From Candidatus Hecatella orcuttiae (GTDB lineage: Archaea > Thermoproteota > Bathyarchaeia > Hecatellales > Hecatellaceae), in the NCBI GenBank assembly GCA_002011035.2, contig MTLY02000001.1, positions 160,001 through 224,000 on the forward strand: a stretch of DNA of 64,000 nt, in the 5' to 3' direction. The position numbers and the translations under genes are program-made. Under the pieces are notes generated by a model, which was not told the origin of the DNA, searched no databases, and saw only the letters and a program-made list of their open reading frames with translations. Positions 20,409 to 32,883 of this stretch are shown piece by piece (position 1 is the first letter of the stretch; each line of letters starts with the position of its first letter).

Positions 20409-20978
20409 CTACAGAAGCTTTTTCAGCCGGGATAGGGCATCTTCCATAGACCCTACTTCAGGGGTTTCCGGTATGCCGATGAGGGGTATGTTCAAGTTTT
20501 TCTTTTTCATCTCATCCTCTAGAACCTCCATGTAGACGCCTTTTTCCGCCACTTGCTTCTGGCTTGGCAGCTTCTCCGGTATGAGTCCGCTCCAAGTTGG
20601 GTTTCTAGGCGTTTTGTTGACGCCGCAGCTGGGGCTTCCGTCTGCGCCTAGGATTGCCACTATCTTGTAGCCGCTTTTCTGATAGTCTTCTATCTGGTTT
20701 AAGATGAAATCAGCTAGCTTCTTGCAGTGTTCTCTGAAAGCCGGAGTGTCATATTGCTCCTTGACATACTGCCATCGACGTATTCCTAGGTAGGTGGTTT
20801 CAGGGCATGGCATTTGAAGGATACCCAGCCCGCTTTTGACCAAGAAGTCCACGACAGGCGTTATGACTCCGGGAAACTTAGCTATGCCTTGTATCTTCGC
20901 GTTCTGATTCAGAATGCAGTGCGTTGCAACAACGATTTTTTTGCTTCTCTTATCCTCCACCACGGTCACCCTATCCAA
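20409..20978 (-). CDS. DUF523 / TudS-related putative thionucleobase desulfurase
   Basis: HCILNQN, QMPCPE, G.DGSPSCGV three-Cys pattern of DUF523. Confidence 0.78.
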   Translation of the reverse strand: MDRVTVVEDKRSKKIVVATHCILNQNAKIQGIAKFPGVITPVVDFLVKSGLGILQMPCPETTYLGIRRWQYVKEQYDTPAFREHCKKLADFILNQIEDYQKSGYKIVAILGADGSPSCGVNKTPRNPTWSGLIPEKLPSQKQVAEKGVYMEVLEDEMKKKNLNIPLIGIPETPEVGSMEDALSRLKKLL

Positions 20979-21094
20979 ATTGACATGTGTTTCGCATTCG
21001 ACCGTATTTTAGTATTTACACAGTGAAAAATCTCAGGCTGCGAAGGGCAGCTCCGGTGAAAGTGAGTTGCAAAAAGCTTGTTGGCGATTCTTTT

Positions 21095-22501
21095 TTATTC
21101 TAGCGGGATCCCGTGGTCTACGAGTTCCTTCTTCACCTTTCGATATATAGCAAGCCATTCGGGAATAGGCTTCAAGGTCTTCAAGTCGACGCACTCCTCG
21201 AACTTTTTCCCGGCGGGAGGTTCCTTTAATTTATCTTCATATCTGGCAACTAAGGTTTTCACGATCTCGTTTGCGTCTGAGCGTTTAACCCCAGCCGAGG
21301 CTTTACCTACTTCCCCTGCAAAGCCCGCTTCAAGGCCGCTGAAATAGTGCGGATACCTCCCCATGCGAGGGCGGATGCCCATTATGCACGCAGTGCCGGA
21401 GGACGCATGCCCGATGCACTGGGCTGCCGCTTCGTAGAGAAGCATGTCGGTGCACGGCCCTGCCACCGGGTTGATGTTGAAGAGAGTGATGTTATGAGTG
21501 TTCCTACTCTGGGATTGGCATGTGAGGCTGTTGGCCCAGATGGACTCCCGGCTGCTGCCTCCGAAAAGATGCCGAAGGTCGAAGACGGCTGCGGAAGGTA
21601 TCGTCGCCTGATGCACCACGAGGATCAGAACGGCCGCAGCGTTGGCTGTTACCACGCATCCCTCCGGTGAACCGGAGTAGCCGCCGATCATAGAGTAATG
21701 GGCCGCCCCGACCGGACCGTTAAAATTGAGAGCCTGAGCTGTCTTGTTCAGCAGGGGATAGTTCGTCTTCAGGCATGAGGGGGGAAGACTCCACATGAGG
21801 TTCACCTGCGGGTCGGCAGCGTCCACAGTTCCATACGCGCCGATGGCGCCCCATCCGCTCACATCGGAGACGAGGAAAGGATAGGACATGCCGGGTCTTC
21901 CAGCCCTTCTCACCCCTTCCTTGGTCAACACGGCTTCCAGCTTCCCATAGACGGTCTCATAAGGGGTGGAGCCCTTAAGCGGCCTTCCATAGGCGGTGAC
22001 GAGAGTAGGCTGGTGGATGATGTCCACCGACCTATATTGGGCTGCAGCTTGAACGGCTAAAACGAAGAGCTCCTCGGAGCACTCGGTGTCGAAGGGACCT
22101 AGAAACGTCGTCGGAGCCTGTCCGTCTTCCGGCTTCCTCGCTTTGCATACAACCTTGTCTAAGCCGGTTCCAAGTGCTACTTGGCTTCGCGCTTCTCTCA
22201 AAGCGCTTTTGAGTTCTTCCTCGGTGAATCTAATGTTCCTTTCAGTGTCAGTGCAGAGCATGCCTACTTCGACGGCGAACTCGAAGCCGGCTTCCCAGAA
22301 CTTATCTGCCAGACTGTCGTCGGCGGGCACAGGGTTCTTGGGGTCGCAGACGCCCTCCAGCCCGTGTTCTTTAAGCTTCTCCGTCACTTTCGTCGGAATA
22401 ACTTTGGTGTCCCAGTCCTTGACCTTGCAGACGGGGCCTGTGTGAATTCTATCCAAGACTTCTAAAAAAGAAACACTCATCAACCAACTCTCCTTGCTCA
22501 T
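21095..22501 (-). CDS. mtmB: Monomethylamine methyltransferase (MtmB) homologue without pyrrolysine, copy 1
   Basis: DD.LADKFWEAG, CTDTER.I.F, GSTPYE, AGRPGM, IGGY.G.PEG, GPCT..LLYE, GKKFEEC.D..TLKP; no in-frame TAG. Confidence 0.88.
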   Translation of the reverse strand: MSKESWLMSVSFLEVLDRIHTGPVCKVKDWDTKVIPTKVTEKLKEHGLEGVCDPKNPVPADDSLADKFWEAGFEFAVEVGMLCTDTERNIRFTEEELKSALREARSQVALGTGLDKVVCKARKPEDGQAPTTFLGPFDTECSEELFVLAVQAAAQYRSVDIIHQPTLVTAYGRPLKGSTPYETVYGKLEAVLTKEGVRRAGRPGMSYPFLVSDVSGWGAIGAYGTVDAADPQVNLMWSLPPSCLKTNYPLLNKTAQALNFNGPVGAAHYSMIGGYSGSPEGCVVTANAAAVLILVVHQATIPSAAVFDLRHLFGGSSRESIWANSLTCQSQSRNTHNITLFNINPVAGPCTDMLLYEAAAQCIGHASSGTACIMGIRPRMGRYPHYFSGLEAGFAGEVGKASAGVKRSDANEIVKTLVARYEDKLKEPPAGKKFEECVDLKTLKPIPEWLAIYRKVKKELVDHGIPLE

Positions 22502-31159: not shown

Positions 31160-31822
31160 GTGAAGTCAAAAAGGCATCAAAAATCAGGTGAAGTACTGGG
31201 GAAGGTCAACAGCTGCATAGTCAACTTCGACGTGGAAGGCCTCCGGCAGGCCTGCCGGGAAGCCTTAGACGAAGGCATCCCTCCTGCTGAAATTTTTAGG
31301 GAAATGGCGAGGGGCATGGAGGTCATCGGCCGGAATTACGAACGTGGAGAATACTACCTTTCTGAGCTGATCGCAGCAGGGGAGACCATGAAGGAGGGAA
31401 TGCGGATAGTGGAGCCGCATCTTAAAACTGCCGATTACAAAGCAGCGGGCAAGGTGCTCATAGGAACGGTTAAGGGAGACCTTCATGACATAGGAAAAGA
31501 CATAGTCATAGCGCTTCTGAAGTCCGCAGGCTTTGAGGTCGTCGACCTAGGCATAGACGTGCCTTCGGAGAAGTTCGTGGAGGAGGTTCGCAGGGTTAAA
31601 CCCGACATCCTCGGACTGTCCGGCTTACTGACGCCTTCCATGATGGAAATGGAAAACGTCATCCGAAGGCTTACTCAGGAAGGCCTCAGGGAAAAAGTCA
31701 AGGTCATCCTCGGCGGCTATCCCATCAAAGAAGATTTCGCCCGGAAGGTGGGAGCCGACGCCGGCGTGAACGACGTGGCTTTAGGCGTGAAAATCTGCAA
31801 AGAGTGGATTAAATCCAAATAG
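31160..31822 (+). CDS. Methyltransferase corrinoid protein, copy 2
   Basis: GEYYLSELI, GTVKGDLHDIGKDIV, GLSGLLT, GG.P. Confidence 0.92.
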   Translation: MKSKRHQKSGEVLGKVNSCIVNFDVEGLRQACREALDEGIPPAEIFREMARGMEVIGRNYERGEYYLSELIAAGETMKEGMRIVEPHLKTADYKAAGKVLIGTVKGDLHDIGKDIVIALLKSAGFEVVDLGIDVPSEKFVEEVRRVKPDILGLSGLLTPSMMEMENVIRRLTQEGLREKVKVILGGYPIKEDFARKVGADAGVNDVALGVKICKEWIKSK

Positions 31823-31830
31823 CCTTGCCT

Positions 31831-32883
31831 TTAACGGTATTTCCCATATTCTTCGGCTGCCTGAATCAGCGCGTCTAGGTTCTCCGGAGGGGTGTTGGCT
31901 GTGACCTCGCAGGAAGAACTCAGGATGAAGCGCCCCCCGGGGGATGTCTCCAAGACGCAGGCCTTTGCCATCTGAAAGACTTCCTCCTTTGGGCTGAAGG
32001 CGAGTTTGAAGCTGTCGATGTTGCCTGAAACGCAGACCTTGTTTTCGGTGATCCTCTTAGCCTCCGCCAAGTTTACCTCCGACTCCAAGCTTAGAGTCGA
32101 AGCTCCTGTCTCAGCCATTTTTTTGAGAATGGGCTTGGTGTTTCCGCAAATGTGAAGGATCACCCCTGCGCCGAGTCTTTTGAATTCCGCTATGAGCCTT
32201 CGCAGATAAGGGAAGGAATACTCTTCAAACCGGGCTGGGGAAACCACTTGGGGTGAGGCGGTGGGCTCGAATATCATAAGGGACTTTACCCCGCCGACTT
32301 CGATCTGAGCTTTCCCCCACTCCATCAGAAATTCGGTTGAAAACTCGACGACCTCCTTGCAGAAACCTGGGTTCCTGATGAGGTCGAGCAGAAAGTCTTT
32401 AGGCCCGCGTAGGATGGCGGCGAAGGACAGCGGCCCTTGGAAGCCGCCCCCCACCGATATGGTTCCCTCTGTTTTCTCACGGAGGATCCGCTGGCATTCC
32501 AGCACCACGGGCATGCGTCCGTCTTTCCTCGGATCAGGTATGCGAAGATTTTTGAGGTCGGAGTAGTTCTTTATCGCCGGCTCTTTAGCGAATATCACGT
32601 GGCCGTCCTCTATTATGACCTTGCAGCCCATTTCATCAGCCCCTAGGGAGGCGTAGGTTACCGCTCCGATGGCGTCGTAGCCGTGTCTTCTCCATGTGGC
32701 CAGAACTCCCTCCGCCATTTTATTCGGGTCTGAGACAAGCTTGGGGAGGGGTATGCGGGTAAAGGCTGAGATGTATTGGTGGCCTACTCCGGGGATGACT
32801 GGCACACGGTCTGGTAGCTCTCCCCGCACAGTCCGAAGAACCCTTTCCAGCGGAGTCATATCCTTCAACTTGATACCTTCCAT
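31831..32883 (-). CDS. MtaA/CmuA-family (UroD-fold) methylcobamide:acceptor methyltransferase
   Basis: MTPLERV..GE.PDRVPV, GP.SFA..LRG, EPTAS, LHICG Zn site, GNID, SSSCE. Confidence 0.85.
   Translation of the reverse strand: MEGIKLKDMTPLERVLRTVRGELPDRVPVIPGVGHQYISAFTRIPLPKLVSDPNKMAEGVLATWRRHGYDAIGAVTYASLGADEMGCKVIIEDGHVIFAKEPAIKNYSDLKNLRIPDPRKDGRMPVVLECQRILREKTEGTISVGGGFQGPLSFAAILRGPKDFLLDLIRNPGFCKEVVEFSTEFLMEWGKAQIEVGGVKSLMIFEPTASPQVVSPARFEEYSFPYLRRLIAEFKRLGAGVILHICGNTKPILKKMAETGASTLSLESEVNLAEAKRITENKVCVSGNIDSFKLAFSPKEEVFQMAKACVLETSPGGRFILSSSCEVTANTPPENLDALIQAAEEYGKYR

Follow-up and report, generated by a model that had tools for sequence, protein, structure and literature searches.

The 64,000-nucleotide stretch of the Candidatus Hecatella orcuttiae genome analysed here (C1:160001-224000, called the window throughout) holds a gene cluster in which two homologues of the methyltransferase MtmB, both free of pyrrolysine (Pyl), lie interleaved with two corrinoid proteins, one MtaA-type enzyme and importers of the NMT1/THI5 and BMP families. 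Our preferred reading, to which we give a probability of about 0.55, is that these genes make up two demethylation systems, each cobalamin-dependent and built of three components, that act on methylated purine- or pyrimidine-type N-heterocycles, as free bases or nucleosides, and not on methylamine. The gene content and motifs of the cluster, the MtmB fold, the absence of Pyl and the conserved linkage can be read directly from the data, and it is the conserved linkage to BMP-type importers, deaminases and xanthine dehydrogenase (XDH)-type enzymes that supports heterocycles as substrates. The cluster is a real and apparently unpublished variant of corrinoid methyltransfer.

Linkage of Pyl-free MtmB genes in the host and in other genomes

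In the host genome, 7 of the 11 Pyl-free MtmB copies, both window copies included, are 46-52% identical to copy 1 and form one clade in the tree, within which copy 2 is the sister of paralogue C1:512798. Four of the six Pfam BMP binding-protein genes of the genome are found within 4.1 kb of a Pyl-free member of this clade and 9 of its 15 Amidohydro_1 genes are no more than 10 kb from one. The amidohydrolases found next to the paralogues belong to the guanine-deaminase/SsnA/ATZ-TRZ kind. Because most of the genomic BMP genes are placed in this way and the pairing recurs in other phyla, the MtmB-BMP arrangement in the window is more than chance.

The recurrence was followed in paralogue-level relatives, since none of 13 same-family genomes has the gene and the matches in other genomes of the class (26 of 200) reach at most 39% identity. 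A wider protein database held 444 proteins at an E value of 1e-20 or better, with a best foreign identity of 60%, and a profile of the clade matched 1441 cluster representatives at E ≤0.001, 396 of them at ≤1e-30. Ninety-six loci were chosen by MtmB similarity alone, 65 from species-representative genomes and 31 from metagenomes; 80 of these hold a strong MtmB open reading frame (ORF), and neighbours were counted within 8 kb. Among the genome loci the archaeal groups are two metagenome-assembled genomes (MAGs) labelled Hadarchaeota, Methanobacteriota, Bathyarchaeia and Methanomethylicia, and the bacterial ones Dehalococcoidales, Anaerolineales, Clostridia, Peptococcaceae, Verrucomicrobiota, Kiritimatiellae, Spirochaetia, Acidimicrobiia and Syntrophaceticus.

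A corrinoid protein is encoded beside MtmB in 49 of the 80 loci, a BMP component in 35, an ATZ/TRZ-like amidohydrolase in 25 and an XDH-type enzyme in 24, followed by RACo (16), a pterin-binding second methyltransferase (MT2; 10), GntR (10), an MtaA-like enzyme (9) and UbiD (8). At least one of BMP, amidohydrolase and XDH is present in 52 of the 80 loci, and in 35 of the 42 loci of 12 kb or more; counted per named genome (n=32), BMP is found in 16, amidohydrolase in 16 and XDH in 14. The gene order is frequently amidohydrolase, corrinoid protein, MtmB, BMP binding protein, ATPase, permease (L063-L065, with two tandem modules in L058). Pfam searches of the unlabelled neighbours added XDH FAD and FeS subunits, RACo, UbiD, pterin-binding MT2 and Amidohydro_2 proteins, as well as PucR purine-catabolism regulators in three loci (L044, L048, L071) and, in two others (L091, L092), a corrinoid-MtmB pair flanked on either side by NCS1 cytosine/purine permeases. 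This linkage of the clade to BMP, deaminase, XDH, PucR and NCS1 genes spans Archaea, Chloroflexota, Bacillota, Verrucomicrobiota, Spirochaetota and others. The initial annotation had proposed demethylation of imported heterocycles and expected the neighbours to recur in related genomes, and this proposal is partly supported: the BMP and deaminase-type genes do recur beside Pyl-free MtmB, with XDH-type genes in addition, a DUF523/TudS-related gene is rare (1 of 80 loci) and lends less support, and the NMT1 gene is beside none of the 80 and lends none.

Five whole genomes were also searched with curated Pfam models, and a Pfam BMP binding-protein gene is found no farther than 8 kb from 15 of their 18 MtmB genes. 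Since these genomes were picked from loci already showing BMP, only the 10 copies that had not been screened beforehand form an independent test, and 7 of them are within 8 kb of a BMP gene; the other three are one each in G043, G044 and G045, the gap in G045 being 8.1 kb. In the Methanomethylicia genome the sole BMP gene is 4.9 kb from MtmB. Genome G045 itself, a 3.2-Mb Bacillota MAG (L069, L071, L072), has 10 MtmB genes, 9 of them within 8 kb of a BMP gene, and 43 genes that Pfam recognises as BMP binding proteins. One of the MAGs labelled Hadarchaeota (L021-L045) has at least 15 copies of the clade, and its BMP modules consist, as in the window, of a binding protein and two permeases with no ATPase. 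In the tree the copies of this MAG and the host paralogues are intermixed, yet same-class matches stay at or below 39% identity, which suggests transfer between lineages or mislabelled bins.

The same evidence bears on a rather unlikely alternative, in which the substrates of the Pyl-free MtmB copies, like those of MtqB, are small aliphatic methylated amines or onium compounds, while the BMP, deaminase and XDH genes form a separate nitrogen-scavenging pathway that shares their islands. Tetramethylammonium, choline, N-methyltaurine-like sulfonates and methylated polyamines would be the candidates. The sole Pyl-free MtmB characterised, MtqB, acts on tetramethylammonium and choline, with trace monomethylamine activity (PMC13044021); the importer of copy 1 is of the NMT1/TauABC kind, with TauA and SsuA among its relatives; other host paralogues stand beside PotD-type importers and an aminotransferase; and 28 of the 80 loci lack any heterocycle-type neighbour. 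However, a BMP gene directly follows MtmB, at 1 kb or less, for 9 of the 18 copies in the five genomes, and because the order is often corrinoid-MtmB-BMP-ATPase-permease this linkage looks like one operon and not like a neighbouring island. PucR regulators and NCS1 nucleobase permeases flanking corrinoid-MtmB pairs likewise argue against aliphatic substrates, and no betaine/choline-type binding protein or BCCT carrier was found among the neighbours labelled by local models or Pfam, which are part of the ORFs. The clade of the window copies also stands apart in the tree from the host's own paralogues nearest the Pyl type, of which the closest scores 404 bits with PF05369 vs 264-288 for the window copies.

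The neighbourhoods of the other host paralogues vary in detail. Paralogue C1:10073 has a corrinoid protein, two complete BMP systems, two ATZ/TRZ-type amidohydrolases, a PreA-like gene and an XDH-type Mo subunit, and C1:512798 is enclosed on both sides by ATZ/TRZ-type amidohydrolases, with a BMP system, a corrinoid protein, an MtaA-like gene and an SsnA-like amidohydrolase nearby. The tandem paralogues C1:531346 and C1:532751 are beside PreA (470 vs 335, score vs cut-off) and a PreT-like gene and have, within about 9 kb, a dihydropyrimidinase (476 vs 393), a carbamate kinase (360 vs 358) and two carbamoyltransferases; the pair itself (region C1:521001-535545) lies between a threonine-synthase-like and a cysteine-synthase-like pyridoxal phosphate enzyme. 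Four more distant paralogues are accompanied by PotD-type importers, an aminotransferase, AFOR and XDH, or an Amt/PII/MtbBC island.

Pyl-free enzymes in a genome with a Pyl system

Both MtmB copies of the window are full-length and free of in-frame stops, so that the earlier description of two homologues with no amber codon holds. They cover positions 3-449 of the 450 of the PF05369 profile and are 48% identical to each other. Copy 1 is 30% identical to MtmB of Methanosarcina barkeri (1L2Q), and its AlphaFold model (predicted local distance difference test, pLDDT, 94.7) superposes on that structure with template modelling (TM) scores of 0.94 (TMq) and 0.96 (TMt) and a root mean square deviation of 1.5 Å. 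The residue opposite Pyl202 of the M. barkeri enzyme is Pro in copy 1 and Ile in copy 2, and over the 11 Pyl-free MtmB genes of the genome the column reads P, I, W, F, I, Q, G, Q, V, I, L.

The host genome (1.75 Mb in 3 contigs, 97% complete) encodes PylS (279 bits) and pylBCD in the region C1:345001-365000. Its one TAG-containing MtmB (728.8 bits) lies outside the window and is accompanied by a corrinoid protein of its own; a TAG also occurs in one MttB gene, and in two MtbB genes the frame is broken where Pyl is expected. The 11 further MtmB genes have no stop of any kind. Because the genome has the Pyl genes and a TAG-containing MtmB and the other 11 are uninterrupted, the absence of Pyl is a feature of the enzymes themselves. 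The Pyl system and the TAG-containing genes rule out that it reflects an incapacity of the organism or an error of assembly, and simple gene decay was rejected because each of the 11 Pyl-free genes is open over its full length. By a crude count over six frames, TAG terminates 377 of 1365 long open frames in this genome despite the Pyl system.

These observations also make very improbable a reading in which the deaminases first free methylamine from exocyclic N-methylamino heterocycles such as N6-methyladenine and the Pyl-free MtmB proteins act as Pyl-independent methylamine methyltransferases. ATZ/TRZ-family enzymes, some of which are known to release alkylamines, do flank several paralogues, and MtqB has the small monomethylamine activity mentioned above. 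Yet the full Pyl machinery is retained in the host, together with a true Pyl-MtmB and the corrinoid protein that goes with it; these would be needless if the Pyl-free copies handled methylamine, an argument that applies to the host genome. Moreover, the variable residues in the Pyl column of the 11 paralogues argue for many substrates and not for one.

Three Pyl-free genes of the MttB superfamily are located elsewhere in the genome. Between C1:95505 and C1:133710, four ORFs have weak matches to the local BMP model (110-145 bits) and are not called BMP by Pfam; one of them (C1:102472-103851) adjoins a Pyl-free MttB gene and a corrinoid gene, and another (C1:132181-133710) is about 5 kb from a second Pyl-free MttB/corrinoid pair.

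Organization of the cluster and its importers

Genes were called from the ORF list together with Pfam and NCBIfam profile searches of the window proteins, and every gene named in the initial annotation was recovered where it had been placed (Table 1). The components of the relay from the substrate methyltransferase (MT1) through the corrinoid protein to a putative MT2 are all present, and the NMT1/THI5-family ABC importer is complete with binding protein, permease and ATPase. Two descriptions needed qualification: the BMP binding protein and its two permeases are there, with no ATPase of their own, and the supposed DUF523 gene is exactly 116 nt from MtmB copy 1 but scores under the Pfam cut-off (PF04463/DUF523, 21.7 vs 34.7) and passes that of the CD3072 family (NF045597) instead.

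Table 1. Genes of the demethylation cluster, by position in the window
Feature	Coordinates	Strand	Profile evidence and other data
TudS-related putative desulfidase, CD3072 family	20409..20978	-	NCBIfam NF045597, 184.7 vs cut-off 130
MtmB homologue copy 1, Pyl-free, MT1	21095..22501	-	468 aa; PF05369, 264.4 bits
Corrinoid protein 1	22498..23187	-	PF02310 and PF02607; DIHDIG at residue 104
ABC ATPase, NMT1-type importer	23330..24106	-	PF00005
Permease, NMT1-type importer	24103..24876	-	PF00528
NMT1/THI5-family binding protein	24962..26053	-	PF09084, 138.6 bits
MtmB homologue copy 2, Pyl-free, MT1	26261..27634	+	457 aa; PF05369, 288.5 bits
BMP/PnrA-family binding protein	27699..28844	+	PF02608, 174.9 bits
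BMP-type ABC permease	28931..29854	-	PF02653, 126.8 bits
BMP-type ABC permease	29871..30884	-	PF02653, 151.8 bits
Corrinoid protein 2	31160..31822	+	PF02310 and PF02607; DLHDIG at residue 107
Putative MtaA/CmuA-type URO-D-fold methylcorrinoid methyltransferase, MT2	31831..32883	-	PF01208, 250 bits

A minus-strand operon running from 26053 to 20409 contains, in this order, the NMT1 binding protein, permease, ATPase, corrinoid protein 1, MtmB copy 1 and the TudS-related gene. The genes of corrinoid protein 1 and MtmB copy 1 overlap by 4 nt and are probably translationally coupled. Copy 2 is transcribed divergently from this operon, and the BMP binding-protein gene starts 64 nt after it. Both corrinoid proteins have the DxHxxG motif; the first passes the TIGR02370 cut-off (217.1 vs 215.3) and the second is under it (188.6). 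The MT2 enzyme has His244 and Cys246 and scores 202.6 vs 235.4 with the NCBIfam MtaA/CmuA subfamily and 211.3 vs 244 with PRK06252, under the cut-off in both cases.

Each of the two binding proteins begins with an RR motif followed by a hydrophobic stretch and a Pro-rich linker, the layout expected of extracytoplasmic archaeal binding proteins, the BMP protein having a SRRSAL signal/anchor and a long (PT)n linker. Its relatives in the PDB include 7x0r (Lbp; 7.9e-32), the Brucella basic membrane lipoprotein 3s99 (4e-28), AtzT (6pi5; 4.5e-26) and PnrA (2fqw; 7.6e-12), with BmpA/BmpD, pneumococcal lipoproteins and RfuA as further solved relatives; a literature search found no paper on 7x0r, the best of these. 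Among the ligands of these structural relatives are adenine, guanine or hydroxyatrazine, as well as purine nucleosides and riboflavin, in keeping with heterocyclic substrates. The best NCBIfam match of the BMP system is a putative B6 importer (109 vs a cut-off of 400). The PDB relatives of the NMT1 binding protein are distant, namely 4nmy (1.3e-15), THI5 (3.8e-12), TauA (3e-8) and ThiY (7.9e-8), and also THI13; the best NCBIfam matches of its ATPase are SaoA- and TauB-like and those of its permease SaoP- and TauC-like, all under cut-off.

Four BMP-type double ATPases are encoded elsewhere in the genome, one of them at 57863-59431 of the window, and this one could serve the ATPase-less module at 27699-30884. 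It belongs to a complete second BMP-type ABC system (56438-63998; double ATPase, two permeases and binding protein), with no MtmB, which adjoins an ATZ/TRZ-type amidohydrolase and an M20 hydrolase.

The TudS-related gene, the last of the copy 1 operon, raises the prospect that the substrate of this operon is an S-methylated or thiolated pyrimidine or purine that is first demethylated by copy 1 and then desulfurised by the TudS-related enzyme, a scheme that we hold to be improbable. The protein has cysteines at positions 21, 58, 85 and 118, and Cys 21, 58 and 118 are spaced like the three cluster ligands of TudS. CD3072-family genes also adjoin Pyl-free MtmB in a Bathyarchaeia MAG (L037; 182 bits, followed by an adenine-deaminase-like gene) and in an Anaerolineales MAG (L075; 160 bits), and the gene is single-copy in the host and in both of these genomes, the three being assigned to three phyla. 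The NMT1 family, in addition, includes the pyrimidine binders ThiY and THI5. The TudS-MtmB link is rare, and chance is an unlikely explanation of it. However, the gene occurs in only one of the 80 loci counted and in one more whose MtmB is truncated; the protein falls short of the Pfam TudS cut-off and the function of the CD3072 family is putative; and the MtmB fold is not known to have thioether activity, the known methylthiol demethylases being of the URO-D family.

An amidohydrolase at 33929-35182 (PRK07213, 335.5 vs 294) was set aside as a member of the cluster. It overlaps by 7 nt the gene of an archaeal-type diaminopyrimidinone-phosphate reductase (TIGR01508), after which come CofG and a CofH-like gene (region 33929-38286), and because of this overlap it looks like part of a riboflavin/FO operon; it may be a pyrimidine deaminase of the archaeal riboflavin/FO pathway. 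Other archaeal markers in the window are NurA, SepRS, CGI-121, a TackOD1 domain and a class V FBPase, with CofG/CofH. The stretch at 50000-52000, where the GC content is low (0.418 vs about 0.52 elsewhere) and an N6/N4 DNA methylase is encoded (50973-51869), may be foreign DNA. For the segment 21095-28844 no RNA dataset is listed as containing it, and the DNA datasets that do are labelled as subsurface and marine metagenomes.

Proposed pathway, known relatives and significance

In the pathway that we propose, the NMT1-type importer would bring in the substrate of copy 1 and the BMP-type importer that of copy 2, and in the cytoplasm each Pyl-free MtmB, as MT1, would move the methyl group of its substrate to the Co(I) of its own corrinoid protein. 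The MtaA-type MT2 would hand the methyl to a carrier and most likely feed a route through MtrH and tetrahydromethanopterin (H4MPT) to acetyl-CoA synthase, since the host genome has two MtrH genes and CdhC, and no McrA was found in it. A RACo-type activase would restore Co(I); a RACo-type ORF (local hidden Markov model, 618 bits) is present outside the window at C1:465078-467015, adjoining another MtaA-like gene. The demethylated ring would then pass to deaminase-type amidohydrolases and XDH-type hydroxylases, and in the bacterial relatives the role of MT2 falls to a pterin-binding enzyme. What is inferred here is the class of substrate, the direction in which the methyl moves and the acceptor that receives it. 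Ring-N-methylated cationic bases, of the 7-methylguanine, 1-methyladenine and 3-methylcytosine types, or their nucleosides, appear most plausible as substrates: to our knowledge all characterised Pyl-free corrinoid MT1 enzymes use permanently charged N-methyl groups, and the cationic bases mimic quaternary amines. As for methylaminomethyl-thiouridine, suggested in the initial annotation, nothing in the data supports it directly.

Several points weigh against heterocycles as the substrates. The substrate assignment of the clade would follow from gene context, and the methyltransferases could simply lie next to an ordinary island for purine scavenging made up of the importer, deaminase and XDH genes. 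Neutral heterocycle N-methyl groups are poor leaving groups without activation, and the known BMP ligands are unmethylated. The lack of the gene in the family of the host and the distance of the same-class matches left no orthologous synteny comparison, and the neighbour labels come from local hidden Markov models built on Pfam-verified genes of the genome, with thresholds of our own choosing and a partial Pfam cross-check. None of BMP, amidohydrolase and XDH is seen in the 28 loci mentioned above, mostly short contigs, or in 7 of the 42 loci of at least 12 kb. The nearest relatives of copy 1 with a readable context are only 50-51% identical to it (L032, L088), the best identity among the metagenome loci being 51%, though relatives at 58-60% exist (P0002-P0004), and that context is a corrinoid gene with otherwise unrelated neighbours. 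Within the host, paralogue C2:213508 has no heterocycle-type neighbour, and no BMP gene is found within 8 kb of it or of C1:531346 and C1:532751. In the window, no ATPase ORF exists in the BMP module between 27699 and 31160, the MT2 does not reach the NCBIfam MtaA/CmuA cut-offs, and the NMT1 link is unique to the host among the loci sampled. Finally, the one Pyl-free MtmB with a known activity acts on simple quaternary amines (PMC13044021).

Compared with known systems, the window copies resemble MtmB of M. barkeri (1L2Q/1NTH) in being full-length members of the Pfam family with the TIM-barrel fold and an adjacent cognate corrinoid gene. They differ from it in lacking UAG and pyrrolysine and in having importers for larger solutes, not Amt or methylamine genes, as neighbours, the true Pyl-MtmB of the host being elsewhere. 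A precedent is MtqB/MtqC of Methanococcoides methylutens Q3c (MtqB, ACT9XH_RS04775), whose Pyl-free MtmB-family member, with its neighbouring corrinoid protein, demethylates N-methyl onium substrates without Pyl and is described in the 2026 report as the first function found for a Pyl-free MtmB, those of the remaining ones being called elusive or unknown (PMC13044021). The statement in the initial annotation that no substrate had been characterised for such a protein is therefore outdated. MtqB branches near the Pyl-MtmBs according to that report (PMC13044021), whereas the window copies are remote from the Pyl copy of their own genome, a comparison made by description only, and the gene contexts differ, with BMP, deaminase and XDH beside the window clade.

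The Pyl-free MttB enzymes (MtgB for glycine betaine, and those for carnitine, proline betaine and butyrobetaine) offer a further parallel, as Pyl-free paralogues of a Pyl enzyme that work in a three-component relay and occur as many paralogues per genome with one substrate each; they belong, however, to PF06253, match the fold only with a TM score of about 0.5 and use aliphatic quaternary amines. The BMP module resembles the BMP/PnrA importers and AtzT in combining PF02608 with two PF02653 permeases and is unlike them in having no ATPase; the operon-level pairing of a BMP importer with a corrinoid methyltransferase was not found in the literature searched. The TudS-related protein is small and Cys-rich, as TudS is, with three cysteines in the spacing of the TudS cluster ligands, although it falls in the separate CD3072 family, under the Pfam TudS cut-off and with no solved sequence relative. 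The overall logic that we propose has its counterpart in the NdmABCDE Rieske oxygenases of caffeine-degrading Pseudomonas, which demethylate purine N-methyl groups in an O2-dependent reaction that releases formaldehyde, the base then going to xanthine dehydrogenase. These enzymes are unrelated in sequence, and the window system would be anaerobic and keep the methyl on cobalamin.

A search of titles and the beginnings of abstracts found no published link of the MtmB family to purines, nucleosides, caffeine or other heterocycles. The MtmB passages of PMC12180501, PMC8407382 and PMC9768040 likewise hold no link to purines or nucleosides, and none of the MtmB/purine search terms occurs in the version of PMC10418091 that was searched. 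According to PMC9768040, a Pyl-free MtmB-superfamily protein with no function assigned is strongly induced in a dichloromethane-grown member of the Peptococcaceae. A recent preprint describes how the N-methyl groups of caffeine give rise to 13CH4 in anoxic sediment; it names no enzyme and lists Bathyarchaeia, Anaerolineae and Verrucomicrobiota among the enriched taxa (10.64898/2026.01.06.697959).

The linkage evidence gives most of one large Pyl-free MtmB clade a concrete candidate substrate class. It is possible, at slightly less than even odds, that the clade represents a widespread anaerobic pathway in which Pyl-free MtmB proteins, each with a BMP-type or other importer, N-demethylate methylated purines and pyrimidines drawn from nucleic-acid debris or methylxanthine-like compounds, the methyl groups going to the Wood-Ljungdahl pathway and the bases to deaminases and XDH-type enzymes. 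The swarms of paralogues, with 11 in the host, at least 15 in the Hadarchaeota-labelled MAG and 10 in the Bacillota MAG, would then be panels of base-specific demethylases, which would explain why some genomes carry many MtmB paralogues beside many BMP importers. If true, methylated nucleobases would join the substrates of anaerobic methylotrophy, and the turnover of necromass nucleic acids would be tied to C1 metabolism in subsurface archaea and bacteria. The clade would also provide candidate enzymes for the O2-free demethylation of methylxanthines and would supply the missing enzyme for the N-demethylation of caffeine in sediments.

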